Positions 2,343 through 12,326 of a stretch of DNA of 64,000 nucleotides are shown here, piece after piece (positions within the stretch are counted from its first letter, which is position 1; every line of letters begins with the position of its first letter). Origin of the DNA: a phage; the sequence record PZ019086.1; one strand, 5' to 3'. The notes beneath the pieces were generated by a model. The model ran no database searches, had not been told where the DNA came from, and saw nothing but the letters and a program-made list of their open reading frames with translations. Position numbers and translations under genes: made by a program.

Positions 2343-4322
2343 ATGACTTTATTATCTCCGGGCATTGAGCTCAAAGAAACTACGGTTCAAAGCACCGTGG
2401 TTAATAACTCTACTGGTACAGCAGCTTTGGCCGGTAAATTCCAGTGGGGTCCTGCTTTTCAAATCAAACAGGTTACAAATGAAGTAGATTTAGTTAATAC
2501 TTTTGGTCAACCTACAGCTGAAACTGCTGATTATTTTATGTCTGCAATGAATTTCTTACAATATGGAAATGATTTGCGAGTTGTGCGTGCTGTCGATAGA
2601 GATACCGCTAAAAACTCATCTCCGATTGCTGGTAATATTGAATACACTATTTCTACCCCAGGTAGTAACTACGCGGTTGGAGATAAGATCACAGTTAAGT
2701 ATGTTTCAGAAGACATTGAAACGGAAGGTAAAATTACCGAAGTAGATGCTGATGGAAAAATTAAGAAAATTAATATTCCTACTGCAAAAATTATCGCTAA
2801 AGCGAAAGAAGTCGGTGAATACCCAGAACTAGGTTCTAACTGGACCGCGGAAATTTCTTCGTCTTCATCTGGTTTAGCTGCAGTAATAACTCTTGGAAAA
2901 ATTATTACTGATTCTGGTATTTTATTAGCTGAAATTGAAAATGCCGAAGCTGCTATGACAGCGGTTGAATTTCAAACAAATCTCGAAAAATATGGAATTC
3001 CAGGAGTAGTAGCTCTTTATCCAGGCGAGTTGGGCGATAAAATCGAAATTGAAATCGTATCTAAAGCTGACTACGCAAAAGGTGCTTCTGCATTACTTCC
3101 AATTTATCCAGGCGGCGGCACACGCGCATCTACTGCCAAAGCAGTGTTTGGATATGGACCACAAACTGATTCGCAATACGCTATTATAGTTCGTCGTAAT
3201 GATGCTATTATTCAAAGCGTTGTTCTTTCAACAAAGCGTGGTGAAAAAGATATTTACGATAGTAACATCTACATTGATGACTTTTTCGCAAAAGGTGGTT
3301 CAGAATATATTTTTGCAACTGCACAAAACTGGCCAGAAGGCTTCTCTGGAATTTTAACTCTGTCTGGTGGATTATCATCAAATGCTGAAGTAACAGCAGG
3401 AGATTTGATGGAAGCTTGGGACTTCTTTGCTGACCGTGAATCTGTTGACGTTCAGTTGTTTATTGCGGGTTCTTGCGCCGGCGAATCTTTAGAAACAGCA
3501 TCTACTGTCCAAAAACACGTCGTTTCAATTGGTGATGCTCGCCAAGATTGCTTAGTACTGTGCTCACCACCGCGTGAAACTGTAGTTGGAATTCCTGTAA
3601 CTCGTGCTGTTGATAACTTAGTCAATTGGAGAACTGCAGCAGGTTCATACACTGATAATAACTTTAATATCAGTTCAACCTACGCAGCAATTGATGGTAA
3701 CTACAAGTATCAGTACGACAAATATAATGATGTGAATCGTTGGGTTCCATTAGCAGCTGATATTGCTGGTTTGTGTGCAAGAACTGATAACGTTTCTCAG
3801 ACTTGGATGTCTCCAGCCGGTTATAATCGTGGCCAAATTTTGAACGTTATTAAACTTGCTATTGAAACTCGCCAGGCGCAGCGCGACCGTTTATATCAAG
3901 AAGCTATCAACCCAGTAACTGGTACAGGTGGTGATGGTTACGTATTGTATGGTGATAAAACAGCTACTTCTGTTCCTTCTCCATTTGATCGTATTAACGT
4001 TCGTCGTCTGTTTAATATGTTGAAAACGAATATCGGACGTAGTTCAAAATATCGTTTGTTCGAATTAAACAACGCGTTTACTCGTTCATCATTCCGCACA
4101 GAAACTTCCCAGTACTTGCAGGGAATTAAAGCTCTCGGTGGAATTTATGAATATCGTGTAGTTTGCGATACAACAAATAACACTCCGTCAGTAATTGATA
4201 GAAATGAGTTTGTTGCAACATTCTACATCCAACCGGCGCGCAGTATAAATTATATTACTTTGAATTTCGTCGCAACTGCTACTGGTGCAGATTTCGATGA
4301 GTTAACTGGTCTTGCAGGTTAA
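2343..4322 (+). CDS. 18: Tail sheath protein (gp18), 659 aa
   Basis: 659 aa ORF, same length as T4 gp18; position after terminase. Confidence 0.96.
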   Translation: MTLLSPGIELKETTVQSTVVNNSTGTAALAGKFQWGPAFQIKQVTNEVDLVNTFGQPTAETADYFMSAMNFLQYGNDLRVVRAVDRDTAKNSSPIAGNIEYTISTPGSNYAVGDKITVKYVSEDIETEGKITEVDADGKIKKINIPTAKIIAKAKEVGEYPELGSNWTAEISSSSSGLAAVITLGKIITDSGILLAEIENAEAAMTAVEFQTNLEKYGIPGVVALYPGELGDKIEIEIVSKADYAKGASALLPIYPGGGTRASTAKAVFGYGPQTDSQYAIIVRRNDAIIQSVVLSTKRGEKDIYDSNIYIDDFFAKGGSEYIFATAQNWPEGFSGILTLSGGLSSNAEVTAGDLMEAWDFFADRESVDVQLFIAGSCAGESLETASTVQKHVVSIGDARQDCLVLCSPPRETVVGIPVTRAVDNLVNWRTAAGSYTDNNFNISSTYAAIDGNYKYQYDKYNDVNRWVPLAADIAGLCARTDNVSQTWMSPAGYNRGQILNVIKLAIETRQAQRDRLYQEAINPVTGTGGDGYVLYGDKTATSVPSPFDRINVRRLFNMLKTNIGRSSKYRLFELNNAFTRSSFRTETSQYLQGIKALGGIYEYRVVCDTTNNTPSVIDRNEFVATFYIQPARSINYITLNFVATATGADFDELTGLAG

Positions 4323-4979
4323 TTGATTATGGGGCTTCGGCCCCTATTCTCGAGGAAACAAGTGATTATTTCTAAGTTTGTTAAAGTGAAAATTGTACCA
4401 TCAAATTTTAAACATTATCAATCAAAGGGTTATAAATTAACACCTCTTGGAGCGGTTAAACATGGATTTAGGTATTATGAAATTGATGTTAAAGTTGAAG
4501 ACATTAAAGGTAATACCGCGTATGTAAAATGCCGTTGCGATAAATGTGGAATTGAATATAACCAACGCATTGGAAGAAACACTGATATTTGTCGTGATTG
4601 CCGTCATAAAGATAAAATGCGCAATAATTCATATGGTTCCGCGAATAAAGGAAAAACAGTAGAATGTATGCATGGCGTAAATCATCCAAGATGGAACCCA
4701 AATAAATCTGAAATGCGTGAATATATTTCATTGGTATATAAAGAAACTCGTAAGCATAAGAAAATTTGGTCAAAATGGCCAAATGCTGATAAAATAGGAG
4801 TGTGCGGTACAAAAGGTGCTTACCAACTTGATCATAAAGTATCTATCAAATACGGTTTTGATAATTTAATTCCTGCTGAAATAATTGGCGGTATTAATAA
4901 TTTAGAAATAATCACTTGGGAATCTAACCGAGAAAAATCAAAAAGAAATAGTGTAGATCTTTGGGATTTACTAGAATGA
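4323..4979 (+). CDS. Free-standing HNH-family homing endonuclease-like protein (start uncertain; in-frame GTG at 4362 preceded by AGGAAA)
   Basis: C-terminal HNH-like motif (YQLDHK ... NNLEIITWESNREK) and Cys-rich CRCDKCG ... CRDCRHK segment; sits between sheath and tube genes; ORF-track start is TTG and overlaps a GGGGC-TTCG-GCCCC hairpin. Confidence 0.7.
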   Translation: MIMGLRPLFSRKQVIISKFVKVKIVPSNFKHYQSKGYKLTPLGAVKHGFRYYEIDVKVEDIKGNTAYVKCRCDKCGIEYNQRIGRNTDICRDCRHKDKMRNNSYGSANKGKTVECMHGVNHPRWNPNKSEMREYISLVYKETRKHKKIWSKWPNADKIGVCGTKGAYQLDHKVSIKYGFDNLIPAEIIGGINNLEIITWESNREKSKRNSVDLWDLLE

Positions 4980-5005
4980 TTCTAAAGGCCTGTTTCGGCA
5001 GGCCA

Positions 5006-5013
5006 TATAAATA
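5006..5013 (+). promoter_or_regulatory. Late promoter-like TATAAATA (distal) upstream of gene 19
   Basis: Exact TATAAATA in the 18/19 intergenic region. Confidence 0.5.
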
Positions 5014-5064
5014 CACTATATCCTTAATTCTTTAATTCTATATGCCCTAGGTTAAACATAGGGA

Positions 5065-5072
5065 TATAAATA
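5065..5072 (+). promoter_or_regulatory. Late promoter TATAAATA (proximal) upstream of gene 19
   Basis: Exact TATAAATA about 15 nt upstream of gene 19 start, followed by AGAGG RBS. Confidence 0.65.
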
Positions 5073-5086
5073 CTACAGAGGCTAAT

Positions 5087-5578
5087 ATGTTTGTAGATGA
5101 TGTAACACGAGCGTTTGAATCTGGTGATTTTGCTCGACCTAACTTATTCCAAGTAGAAATTTCTTATCTTGGACAAAATTTTACGTTTCAATGCAAAGCC
5201 ACTGCTTTACCAGCTGGTATTGTAGAAAAAATTCCAGTCGGATTTATGAACCGTAAAATTAACGTAGCAGGCGATCGTACATTTGATGACTGGACTGTTA
5301 CAGTAATGAACGATGAGGCACATGATGCTCGCCAGAAGTTTGTTGATTGGCAAAGCATTGCTGCTGGGCAAGGGAACGAAATTACTGGTGGAAAACCAGC
5401 AGAGTATAAAAAGAGCGCTATTGTTCGCCAATATGCTCGTGACGCTAAAACTGTAACAAAAGAAGTCGAAATTAAAGGCCTGTGGCCTACTAACGTGGGT
5501 GAACTTCAATTAGATTGGGATTCAAACAATGAAATCCAAACATTTGAAGTAACTCTTGCTCTCGATTATTGGGAATAA
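5087..5578 (+). CDS. 19: Tail tube protein (gp19), 163 aa
   Basis: 163 aa ORF matching T4 gp19 length and N-terminus MFVDDVTRAFESGDF. Confidence 0.95.
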   Translation: MFVDDVTRAFESGDFARPNLFQVEISYLGQNFTFQCKATALPAGIVEKIPVGFMNRKINVAGDRTFDDWTVTVMNDEAHDARQKFVDWQSIAAGQGNEITGGKPAEYKKSAIVRQYARDAKTVTKEVEIKGLWPTNVGELQLDWDSNNEIQTFEVTLALDYWE

Positions 5579-5610
5579 AATGAATGGGGAGAAATCCCCA
5601 TCCTGCTTAA

Positions 5611-9393: not shown

Positions 9394-10959
9394 ATGACTA
9401 TCAAAACTAAAGCTGAACTTTTGAACAAATGGAAGCCATTACTGGAAGGTGAAGGTTTACCGGAAATTGCTAATAGCAAACAAGCGATTATCGCTAAAAT
9501 CTTTGAAAACCAGGAAAAAGATTTCCAGACAGCTCCAGAGTACAAAGACGAAAAAATCGCTCAGGCGTTCGGTTCTTTCTTAACAGAAGCTGAAATCGGT
9601 GGTGACCACGGTTACAACGCTACTAACATCGCTGCTGGTCAGACTTCTGGCGCAGTAACTCAGATTGGCCCAGCTGTTATGGGTATGGTACGTCGTGCTA
9701 TTCCTAACCTGATTGCTTTCGATATTTGCGGTGTTCAGCCGATGAACAGCCCGACCGGTCAGGTATTCGCACTGCGCGCAGTATATGGTAAAGACCCAAT
9801 CGCTGCCGGTGCTAAAGAAGCATTCCACCCAATGTATGGTCCAGATGCAATGTTCTCTGGTCAGGGTGCTGCTAAGAAATTCCCAGCTCTGGCTGCTAGC
9901 ACACAAACTACAGCAGGTGATATCTATACTCACTTCTTCCAGGACACTGGTACTGTGTATCTGCAGGCTTCTGCTCAAGTAACAATTAGTGCAAGCGCAA
10001 CCGATGCAGCTAAATTAGATGCTGAAATTAAAAAACAAATGGAAGCTGGTGTACTGGTAGAAATCGCTGAAGGTATGGCTACTTCTATCGCTGAACTTCA
10101 GGAAGGTTTCAACGGTTCTACCGATAACCCATGGAATGAAATGGGCTTCCGTATCGATAAACAAGTTATCGAAGCTAAATCTCGCCAGCTGAAAGCTGCT
10201 TACTCTATCGAATTAGCACAAGACCTCCGCGCTGTTCACGGTATGGATGCTGATGCTGAACTGTCTGGTATTCTGGCTACCGAAATCATGCTGGAAATCA
10301 ACCGTGAAGTTGTTGATTGGATTAACTACTCAGCTCAGGTTGGTAAATCTGGTATGACCCTGACTCCGGGTTCTAAAGCTGGTGTATTTGACTTCCAGGA
10401 TCCGATTGATATTCGTGGTGCTCGCTGGGCGGGTGAATCCTTTAAAGCTCTGTTGTTCCAGATTGACAAAGAAGCAGTTGAAATTGCTCGTCAGACCGGT
10501 CGTGGTGAAGGTAACTTCATTATCGCTTCCCGTAACGTAGTTAACGTTCTGGCTTCAGTTGATACTGGCATTTCTTATGCTGCACAGGGTCTGGCTACCG
10601 GCTTTAACACTGATACTACCAAGTCAGTATTTGCTGGTGTTCTGGGTGGTAAATACCGTGTATATATCGACCAGTATGCTAAACAGGATTATTTCACTGT
10701 AGGTTATAAAGGTCCGAACGAAATGGATGCTGGTATTTACTACGCTCCATATGTAGCTCTGACTCCGCTGCGTGGTTCCGATCCGAAGAACTTCCAACCA
10801 GTAATGGGATTCAAAACTCGTTACGGTATCGGTATCAACCCATTTGCAGAATCCGCTGCTCAGGCTCCGGCTTCTCGCATCCAGAGCGGTATGCCTTCTA
10901 TTCTGAATAGCCTTGGTAAAAACGCTTACTTCCGCCGCGTATATGTTAAAGGTATCTAA
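9394..10959 (+). CDS. 23: Major capsid protein (gp23), 521 aa
   Basis: Near-identical to remembered T4 gp23 (MTIKTKAELLNKWKPLLEGEGLPEIANSKQAIIAKIFENQEKDF...); strongest codon bias in the window. Confidence 0.98.
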   Translation: MTIKTKAELLNKWKPLLEGEGLPEIANSKQAIIAKIFENQEKDFQTAPEYKDEKIAQAFGSFLTEAEIGGDHGYNATNIAAGQTSGAVTQIGPAVMGMVRRAIPNLIAFDICGVQPMNSPTGQVFALRAVYGKDPIAAGAKEAFHPMYGPDAMFSGQGAAKKFPALAASTQTTAGDIYTHFFQDTGTVYLQASAQVTISASATDAAKLDAEIKKQMEAGVLVEIAEGMATSIAELQEGFNGSTDNPWNEMGFRIDKQVIEAKSRQLKAAYSIELAQDLRAVHGMDADAELSGILATEIMLEINREVVDWINYSAQVGKSGMTLTPGSKAGVFDFQDPIDIRGARWAGESFKALLFQIDKEAVEIARQTGRGEGNFIIASRNVVNVLASVDTGISYAAQGLATGFNTDTTKSVFAGVLGGKYRVYIDQYAKQDYFTVGYKGPNEMDAGIYYAPYVALTPLRGSDPKNFQPVMGFKTRYGIGINPFAESAAQAPASRIQSGMPSILNSLGKNAYFRRVYVKGI

Positions 10960-10974
10960 TCTTTGACGATTTAA

Positions 10975-11004
10975 GGGACCTTCGGGTCCCTTTAGTTGTT
11001 TTTA
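10975..11004 (+). terminator. Rho-independent terminator after gene 23
   Basis: GGGACC-TTCG-GGTCCC hairpin followed by TTTAGTTGTTTTTA. Confidence 0.75.
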
Positions 11005-11007
11005 TGG

Positions 11008-11015
11008 TATAAATA
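11008..11015 (+). promoter_or_regulatory. Late promoter TATAAATA upstream of gene 24
   Basis: Exact TATAAATA about 28 nt upstream of gene 24 ATG, just after the gene 23 terminator. Confidence 0.65.
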
Positions 11016-11042
11016 AATCATATAAACCAAAAGGAAAGCGCA

Positions 11043-12326
11043 ATGGCTAAAATCAACGAACTTCTGCGCGAATCAACCACAACGAATAGCAACTCAATCG
11101 GTCGCCCAAATCTCGTTGCTTTGACTCGCGCTACCACTAAATTAATATATTCTGACATTGTAGCAACGCAAAGAACTAATCAACCTGTTGCTGCTTTTTA
11201 TGGTATCAAATACCTTAACCCAGATAACGAATTTACATTTAAAACTGGTGCTACTTACGCTGGCGAAGCTGGGTATGTAGACCGAGAACAAATCACAGAA
11301 TTAACAGAAGAGTCTAAATTAACTCTCAATAAAGGCGATTTATTCAAATATAATAATATCGTTTATAAAGTATTAGAAGATACACCATTTGTTGATATTG
11401 AAGAAAGCGATTTAGAATTAGCTCTTCAGATTGCAATTGTTCTTTTAAAGGTTCGTCTATTTTCTGATGCTGCAGTAACAAGCAAATTTGAAAGCTCTGA
11501 TAGTGAAATTGCGGATGCTAGATTCCAGATTAATAAATGGCAAACCGCGGTTAAATCTCGTAAACTTAAAACTGGCATCACAGTTGAATTAGCACAAGAT
11601 TTAGAAGCAAACGGATTCGATGCTCCTAATTTCTTGGAAGATTTGCTTGCAACTGAAATGGCGGATGAAATCAATAAAGATATTCTGCAGTCTTTGATTA
11701 CAGTATCAAAACGCTATAAAGTTACAGGAATTACTGATACTGGATTCATTGATTTGAGTTATGCATCTGCACCTGAAGCTGGTCGTTCATTATACCGAAT
11801 GGTATGTGAAATGGTTTCGCATATCCAAAAAGAATCAACTTATACTGCAACGTTCTGTGTTGCTTCAGCTCGTGCCGCTGCGATTCTTGCTGCATCAGGT
11901 TGGTTAAAACATAAACCAGAAGATGATAAATATCTTTCACAAAATGCCTATGGGTTCTTAGCTAATGGTTTACCGCTTTATTGCGATACTAACAGCCCAT
12001 TAGATTATGTAATCGTTGGTGTAGTAGAAAATATTGGTGAAAAAGAAATTGTTGGATCAATTTTCTATGCTCCGTATACAGAAGGTCTTGACTTAGATGA
12101 CCCTGAACATGTAGGTGCATTTAAAGTTGTAGTTGATCCAGAAAGTTTGCAGCCATCTATCGGTTTATTGGTTAGATATGCTTTATCTGCAAATCCTTAT
12201 ACTGTAGCAAAAGATGAAAAAGAAGCAAGAATAATTGATGGTGGAGACATGGATAAAATGGCGGGTCGTTCAGATTTGTCTGTTTTATTAGGTGTTAAGC
12301 TACCAAAAATTATCGTCGATGAATAA
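11043..12326 (+). CDS. 24: Capsid vertex protein (gp24), 427 aa
   Basis: 427 aa, paralogous to gp23, as in T4. Confidence 0.95.
   Translation: MAKINELLRESTTTNSNSIGRPNLVALTRATTKLIYSDIVATQRTNQPVAAFYGIKYLNPDNEFTFKTGATYAGEAGYVDREQITELTEESKLTLNKGDLFKYNNIVYKVLEDTPFVDIEESDLELALQIAIVLLKVRLFSDAAVTSKFESSDSEIADARFQINKWQTAVKSRKLKTGITVELAQDLEANGFDAPNFLEDLLATEMADEINKDILQSLITVSKRYKVTGITDTGFIDLSYASAPEAGRSLYRMVCEMVSHIQKESTYTATFCVASARAAAILAASGWLKHKPEDDKYLSQNAYGFLANGLPLYCDTNSPLDYVIVGVVENIGEKEIVGSIFYAPYTEGLDLDDPEHVGAFKVVVDPESLQPSIGLLVRYALSANPYTVAKDEKEARIIDGGDMDKMAGRSDLSVLLGVKLPKIIVDE

Follow-up and report, generated by a model that had tools for sequence, protein, structure and literature searches.

An additional ORF between the tail sheath and tail tube genes

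In a 64,000-nucleotide (nt) stretch of phage DNA (sequence record PZ019086.1), called here the window, an additional open reading frame (ORF) lies between gene 18, which codes for the tail sheath, and gene 19, which codes for the tail tube. The window belongs to a T4-like genome of the genus Tequatrovirus and has the gene order 16, 17, 18, ORF, 19, 20, 67, 68, 21, 22, 23; positions 3800-5600 are 98-99% identical to phages ADUt, pSs-1, HY03, RB3, and HP3. Gene 18 (2343-4322, 659 amino acids (aa)) is located directly upstream of the ORF and ends with a TAA stop codon at 4320-4322; gene 19 (5087-5578, 163 aa) is located downstream. The ORF and the features described with it are on the plus strand. 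Within the window no second copy (paralogue) of the ORF was found.

As listed, the ORF occupies positions 4323..4979 and has 218 aa counted from TTG. An initial annotation, made from the letters of the window, gave its size as 205-218 aa and preferred the in-frame GTG at 4362 as the start; our comparisons agree on both points. Read from this GTG to the TGA (4362..4979), the coding sequence gives a product of 205 aa, a putative free-standing HNH homing endonuclease of the RB3-like allele, called here type A. A Shine-Dalgarno sequence GAGG (4352-4355) stands 6 nt 5' of the GTG and is kept in the allele of phages T6 and PP01, called here type B. In the family alignment the N-terminus MII(S/T)K is found at the GTG position in more than 30 members, and the GenBank record of T6 says "likely begin by GTG." Since a 1-nt difference in the T6/PP01 allele produces an in-frame TAA upstream of the GTG, neither the upstream TTG nor the upstream ATG can be the conserved start. 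Both of these candidates (TTG 4323 and ATG 4329) were rejected: they are situated in or before a hairpin, lack conservation, and in the type B allele are cut off by the in-frame TAA. GTG 4362 is the true start.

Copies of the ORF that are 4% apart in nucleotides have a ratio of nonsynonymous to synonymous substitution rates (dN/dS) of 0.13-0.15, and for the C-terminal part common to alleles A and B this ratio is 0.13. The frame is intact in all four translated copies of type A (the window, LYE-01, ADUt, and G2540-3). A profile of the family found 6120 cluster representatives at E<=0.001. This number together with the dN/dS of 0.13-0.15 indicates that the ORF is a real gene and not a chance reading frame, and the same dN/dS values indicate that the protein is maintained.

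Empty and occupied junctions in Tequatrovirus

The initial annotation gave genes 18 and 19 as directly adjacent in T4, and indeed 116 nt and no ORF lie between them in that phage. The junction of T2 is also empty. According to alignments with T4, T2, T6, and PP01, the segment that is present in the window and missing in T4 and T2 is 4323..4978, and these two phages have 8 nt, TACGGTGC, instead. The T4 junction reads TAA-TACGGTGC-ATTCTAAAGGCCTGTTTCGGCAGGCC, and the same left and right sequences are found in the window. The left boundary of the segment is directly after the stop codon of gene 18; the right boundary is at ATTCTAAAGG, whose first A also ends the TGA of the ORF. Apart from the ORF, the inserted segment contains only a hairpin and a ribosome-binding site. 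After it, the hairpin that follows gene 18 in T4 and both late-promoter boxes of T4 continue unchanged. The position of the ORF is intergenic, between two conserved essential genes, and not in an intron or intein.

The empty, T4-type junction was found in 382 of about 500 Tequatrovirus records (~76%), the type A allele in 48 (RB3, RB5-RB10, HP3, pSs-1, HY03, and others), and the type B allele, that of T6, in 70; the unit of this census is the database record rather than the independent isolate, and some RefSeq and GenBank entries are duplicates. The gene is therefore carried by some close relatives and not by all of them. Presence and absence vary among genomes that are ~97-99% identical in the flanks, and the boundaries are exact to the base. 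The copies of RB3, RB5-RB10, HP3, pSs-1, HY03, and ADUt (PHROG 5104) represent the same allele as the window, with 95-100% nucleotide identity and no substantive difference. Type A copies are annotated mostly as "hypothetical protein," in ADUt as "homing endonuclease," and in RB5-RB10 not at all. The type B allele was first deposited in 1994 as T6 "ORF19.1."

One match of the search was to MG010123.1, "Staphylococcus phage SAJK-IND" (32 kb, host S. aureus), which is 99.1% identical to this coliphage region. This record looks mislabelled or contaminated.

Domain composition of the protein

The protein matched PHROG 5104 (E 3.5e-90; residues 14-217, in the numbering of the 218-aa form, align with positions 1-209 of the 228 in the profile), a group annotated as "unknown function." An HNH-like motif and a Cys-rich segment had been noticed in the initial annotation, and both were found. 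The Cys-rich segment, C59-x2-C62...C77-x2-C80, forms a Cys4 zinc ribbon (4536..4601), which is a putative DNA-binding module; of its cysteines, C59, C62, and C77 did not vary among 36 family members. The C-terminal nuclease-like domain extends from G105 to E205 (4674..4976) and contains the catalytic-type motif D157-H158...N180-L...N189-R-x-K192 (4830..4937), an HNN variant of HNH. Among 36 close family members no variation was seen at D157, H158, N180, N189, or K192, and an alignment of 36 diverse C-terminal domains has no invariant columns other than the D, H, N, N, and K of this motif. We take the spacing D-H-(21)-N-L-x3-T-x2-S-N-R-x-K to fit the classical HNH domain (PF01844), in which two cysteines of the structural zinc site would be changed to T and S. 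It also fits the HNH domain of Cas9 (D839-H840/N854/N863).

The AlphaFold2 model of the full-length protein had a mean predicted local distance difference test (pLDDT) score of 85.8 and the model of the domain 83.7, with values above 90 over the motif. The motif residues are held by a predicted strand-strand-helix unit (154-158 / 181-185 / 186-191). HNH endonucleases are the best structural matches of the full-length model and of the domain model alike, and about 12 more HNH or beta-beta-alpha-metal nucleases are present in the match lists; a Foldseek search of the full-length model against the PDB gave no match. The protein is likely a member of the HNH / beta-beta-alpha-metal superfamily and a putative nuclease.

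Homing endonucleases are known for a modular, "beads on a string" design, and NUMOD3 is one of their known DNA-binding modules. In two relatives (P0200 and P0208) the same C-terminal domain is joined to a zinc ribbon and NUMOD3 repeats, and in other relatives it is joined to DUF7487 repeats. As judged from these architectures, the C-terminal domain is a shuffled module. Three relatives are named McrA by the Joint Genome Institute (JGI). On two distant relatives PF01844 matched in the right register at sub-threshold level (P0258 with E 0.057 and P0249 with E 0.26).

The longer relatives P0169, P0125, P0119, P0143, and P0179 contain tandem repeats of ~30 residues with a consensus around RYGVEYPMQS, which are matched by Pfam DUF7487. 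These repeats stand N-terminal to the same nuclease-type domain and may represent an undescribed DNA-binding repeat of phage endonucleases.

Two alleles with different central cassettes

How different are the two alleles that occupy the same place? T6 ORF19.1 has the same slot, hairpin, Shine-Dalgarno sequence, and GTG as the ORF of the window, and its first 12 codons are near-identical. Its last ~73 residues (133-205), which include the whole HNH-type motif, are 89-92% identical to ours. It differs in residues 13-132, where protein identity of the window to T6/PP01 is 22%, and it has no PLGAVKHGF insert. At the nucleotide level the first ~25 nt of the ORF, its last ~220 nt, and the flanks are 80-100% identical to T6/PP01, and identity over the cassette is ~40-53%. 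Sliding-window identity placed this allele-specific cassette at about residues 9-133 (measured as 13-132; 4385..4760).

The same pattern with the same borders was found between two metagenomic contigs, L012 (type A) and L013 (type B), whose flanks are 90-100% identical. They belong to an unrelated uncultured lineage, to which no isolate is closer than ~85% nucleotide identity. Three further A/B pairs show this pattern at the protein level, which makes five pairs in all. Across lineages the middle parts of A and A or of B and B are 43-64% identical, much more than A and B share within one lineage, and the C-terminal domain tracks the lineage and not the allele type. For these two reasons we consider that two ancient versions of the presumed recognition part coexist in several lineages, each joined to the nuclease domain of its own lineage. 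We propose, quite tentatively and at no great odds, a long-lived dimorphism across lineages, in which recognition cassettes A and B (22-30% identical) are set on local HNH domains, have different targets, and persist beside the empty state through competition in mixed infections, either mutual or frequency-dependent.

Signals around the ORF and the gene 18 patch

The GGGGC-TTCG-GCCCC hairpin that the initial annotation placed just after gene 18, at the 5' end of the ORF, is present in the sequence. It has 5 bp, GGGGC(4331-4335)-UUCG-GCCCC(4340-4344), occupies 4331..4344, and is kept in both the minimum free energy and the centroid folds. The intrinsic-terminator scan did not call it, as it has no T run. 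Probably this hairpin marks the 3' end of the gene 18 mRNA or stabilizes that mRNA, and partly blocks read-through into the ORF. It is kept in both type A and type B alleles of Tequatrovirus and in Shewanella phage Thanatos-2; all other lineages examined have a different stable hairpin at its place. A second hairpin, GGCCUG-UUUCGG-CAGGCC (4987..5004), stands directly after gene 18 in T4 and after the ORF here, and is identical in the window, T4, T6, PP01, ADUt, and G2540-3.

The late-promoter consensus TATAAATA occurs twice before gene 19, at 5006..5013, outside the inserted segment, and at 5065..5072, immediately 5' of the gene; T4 has both. Upstream of the ORF the nearest such consensus on the plus strand is at 2307, before gene 18. 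No sigma-70 promoter was found upstream of the ORF in the window at the scan threshold of 9/12, and the sequence TTGATT-16-TATTCT is an 8/12 match judged by eye.

The record of Shigella phage sb2 (L015, PQ666540.1; 273-494) has an extra C in the hairpin (GGGGCTTCGGCCCCC). Its annotation covers gene 18 and the ORF only in part, which suggests frameshifts or sequencing errors.

Near the 3' end of gene 18 there is a patch of 34 nt (4238..4271, 51-84 nt before the stop) with 11 synonymous differences from T4. The comparison covered 330 nt, and in the 296 nt outside the patch there are six differences (~98% identity). Downstream of the ORF 209 nt are identical in all states. Among ~450 records the patch was of A-type in ~109, of T4-type in 248, and of B-type in 90. 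Most carriers of the ORF have the patch of their own allele (linkage disequilibrium), and T2 combines the empty junction with an A-type patch. A strict rule of target and self-immunity for the patch was rejected, since all four combinations of patch and ORF exist. The patch cannot be the sole determinant of self-protection, because some ORF carriers have the T4-type patch. It may be a candidate co-conversion tract or part of a target/immunity polymorphism, and the empty junction, which the ORF disrupts, is an equally good candidate target.

Predicted function

That the window carries an intact gene of a predicted HNH-type nuclease with patchy distribution is well supported. About a quarter of the relatives carry the ORF, it exists in two swapped versions, and T4 is without it; for these reasons a selfish homing endonuclease is the most likely explanation. 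We assign a probability of about 0.55 to the reading that the ORF codes for a functional free-standing HNH homing endonuclease, whose predicted target is the 18/19 region of co-infecting relatives that are without the ORF. The strong association of the gene 18 patch with carriage of the ORF speaks for this reading.

The following scheme can be proposed. Residues ~1-100 would form an N-terminal beta/zinc-ribbon part for DNA recognition, followed by a linker with the conserved motif G-x-N-H-P-R-W-N-P-N-K and then by the C-terminal HNH nuclease domain. In the active site H158 would serve as the general base, D157 and N189 as metal ligands, and N180 as the structural Asn. There is no promoter inside the inserted segment, and for this reason the ORF is probably transcribed late, by read-through from the late promoter of gene 18 (2307) past the UUCG hairpin; translation would begin from GTG 4362 by means of GAGG. 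In a mixed infection the enzyme would nick or cut the ORF-less genome (T4, T2) within or close to its empty 18/19 junction, and recombinational repair with the ORF-carrying genome as template would bring in the ORF and nearby markers, such as the gene 18 patch. By analogy with MobA, MobE, and the top structural matches, the putative enzyme is probably a nickase. We infer its nuclease activity, target, expression timing, homing, and marker exclusion from the comparisons described here.

Several results weigh against this reading. A search against HNH families had been suggested in the initial annotation, and it gave no HNH match in Pfam at E<=1, where zinc-ribbon matches appeared at sub-threshold level only, and no HNH match in NCBIfam at E<=0.1. 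The PADLOC defence models had no match to the protein. Searched against the sequences of solved structures, the single protein had no match, the full-family profile had weak zinc-ribbon matches only, and the profile of the C-terminal domain reached the HNH domain of Cas9 (PDB sequences) at a non-significant E of 0.92. In the sequence, three of the four structural-zinc cysteines of classical HNH domains are missing. The phage YwIITB1 carries the ORF together with a T4-type patch. In the literature searched (T-even 18/19 endonucleases, ORF19.1, and DUF7487) no experimental study of the ORF was found. The apparent age of the slot, considered in the next section, belongs to the same side.

The leucine-rich-repeat matches given by the profile of the C-terminal domain were rejected as spurious; they come from the pattern I-G-x-I-x-N-L-x-x-I-x-W-x-x-N.

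Age of the slot and alternative explanations

Several other lineages of the Straboviridae have a homologue of the ORF in the slot between gp18 and gp19, among them Klebsiella phage Roth21, Shewanella phage Thanatos-2, the Dhakavirus phages PSD9 and Bp7, and Winklervirus CHI14; in Salmonella phage STP4-a and Citrobacter phage CkP1 the match coordinates fit the same gene 18/19 arrangement. Compared with the window, the type A orthologues have identities of 59-65% for the ORF protein, 64-72% for gp18, and 67-72% for gp19. As the identity of the ORF is near that of gp18 and gp19, it has diverged roughly in step with its neighbours. At the level of sequence divergence this looks more like long vertical residence than like recent invasion. 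The gene 18/19 slot is therefore an old polymorphism with three states (empty, type A, and type B), and the absence of the gene in T4 may equally be explained as loss. The initial annotation spoke of an insertion of a free-standing homing endonuclease: its free-standing, patchy, and HNH-type character stands, and the part that is weakened is recent arrival, since other genera have orthologues at the same position whose divergence is like that of the flanks.

These observations are the main grounds for the strongest alternative, which is possible, though we hold it to be well short of an even chance: the ORF would be an old accessory nuclease that benefits the phage, acting against competing or superinfecting phages or against host DNA, without copying itself, inherited vertically and repeatedly deleted, as in T4 and T2. 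Occurrence of the same slot in Tequatrovirus, Dhakavirus, and Winklervirus and in phages of Klebsiella, Salmonella, Citrobacter, and Shewanella, the flank-like divergence, and purifying selection on the protein all fit it, and the A-type patch beside the empty junction of T2 is consistent with deletion. The regions upstream of the ORF were also compared by lineage (L005 2426-2510, L009 2757-2835, L012 202-285, L010 2404-2515, and L011 2371-2565, the last being Bp7). Roth21, PSD9, and the L012 and L013 contigs have a near-consensus sigma-70 promoter leading into a stem-loop before the ORF, an arrangement like the promoter(early)-stem-loop (PeSL) elements; CHI14 and Bp7 have a late promoter TATAAATA just 5' of the ORF; the window, T6, and Thanatos-2 have the hairpin only. 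Such lineage-specific promoters suggest integration into the regulation of the host phage. However, 76% of Tequatrovirus records are without the gene, so it is dispensable. Two deeply diverged alleles and an empty state in near-identical genomes are typical of selfish endonucleases and hard to obtain by simple benefit, and the relatives have modular architectures of the homing-endonuclease type.

The ORF could also be passive cargo, gained, lost, or replaced by another allele through recombination at flanking hairpins, PeSL-type motifs, and the conserved ends of the ORF, with no cut of its own. The PeSL design is reported to mediate modular shuffling in T4-type phages (PMC2839356, PMC4122927). 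Two UUCG-type hairpins bracket the segment, the borders of the A/B cassette are sharp and fall within conserved sequence, and the PeSL-like elements of Roth21, PSD9, L012, and L013 could serve in such exchange. But the two hairpins of the window have only TTCGGC in common, which is little homology, and upstream of the ORF the window has no sigma-70 promoter at threshold level. Passive transfer also leaves a conserved nuclease with an invariant active-site motif unexplained, though it is compatible with homing. We consider it unlikely as the whole explanation; passive shuffling may contribute under either the homing or the accessory reading. Finally, a decaying or catalytically dead remnant without present function, suggested by the failure of curated HNH models and the loss of most structural-zinc cysteines, is very improbable against intact frames in the copies examined, a dN/dS of 0.13-0.15, D-H/N/N/K columns invariant over very diverse relatives, and a structure model that is confident over the motif.

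A second extra ORF of 190-193 aa was observed in the gene 19/20 slot of Bp7 (L011 3823-4404), L012 (1619-2191), and L013 (1908-2480). In Bp7 it is annotated as "HNH endonuclease," and gene 20 of this phage is annotated in two pieces. In NCBIfam this second ORF weakly matches TIGR01453, a model for group I intron endonucleases (E 0.0013-0.028), which we take to be a GIY-YIG model. In the window there is no ORF between genes 19 and 20.

Relation to known phage endonucleases and significance

The intergenic layout between conserved genes is that of the known free-standing endonuclease genes of T4, and the table of T4 endonucleases contains none at the 18/19 position (PMC2988022). A survey of 2010 listed zero "other HNH" genes for RB3. 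Like the ORF, the MobA-MobE proteins of T4 are free-standing, are located between conserved T-even genes, and combine HNH with a separate DNA-binding part. Mob proteins begin with the HNH domain and carry the DNA-binding region after it, at the C-terminus (PMC2988022), whereas the present protein has its zinc ribbon in the N-terminal part and ends with the HNH-type domain. Because of this reversed order and the lack of an HNH match in Pfam, the protein is not a member of the Mob family, yet it would function like the Mob/Seg class of T4.

Identity of the protein to Gme HNH (4h9d) and phage GVE2 HNH (5h0o), which are small nicking endonucleases, is 10-16%. These are single-domain proteins, whereas the protein described here has an additional N-terminal zinc-ribbon part, and the roles need not match.

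The SegH/Hef and MobC/MobE loci likewise have different endonuclease genes in one intergenic slot, and mobE and hef both target nrdB (PMC2988022). In those loci, however, the alternatives are unrelated genes, while here they are alleles of one gene with a common nuclease domain and a different presumed recognition part.

T4 has segD between genes 23 and 24 (PMC2988022). In the window the space between gene 23 (9394-10959) and gene 24 (11043-12326) is 83 nt (10960-11042), and therefore this phage is without the segD endonuclease gene.

Most likely, we deal with an HNH-type subfamily that is missed by standard domain libraries and was unrecognized until now, while the kind of element is fairly ordinary for such phages. 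The family has remained unannotated in databases since 1994 because the domain libraries miss its nuclease domain, and many phage genomes could be better annotated once it is recognized as HNH-type, given the number of representatives. The A/B cassette is a natural experiment on the exchange of recognition modules over a constant catalytic domain. If the proposed dimorphism is true, its occurrence in at least five lineages would be a natural case of swapping of specificity modules on a fixed nuclease domain. Easy test material is at hand, as each state of the junction is represented by a standard laboratory phage: empty by T4 and T2, A by RB3, and B by T6. Free-standing endonuclease genes shape the survival of markers in T-even co-infection and are a source of programmable nickases. 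For the design of phage cocktails, the homing reading predicts biased inheritance of the tail-gene alleles beside the slot.

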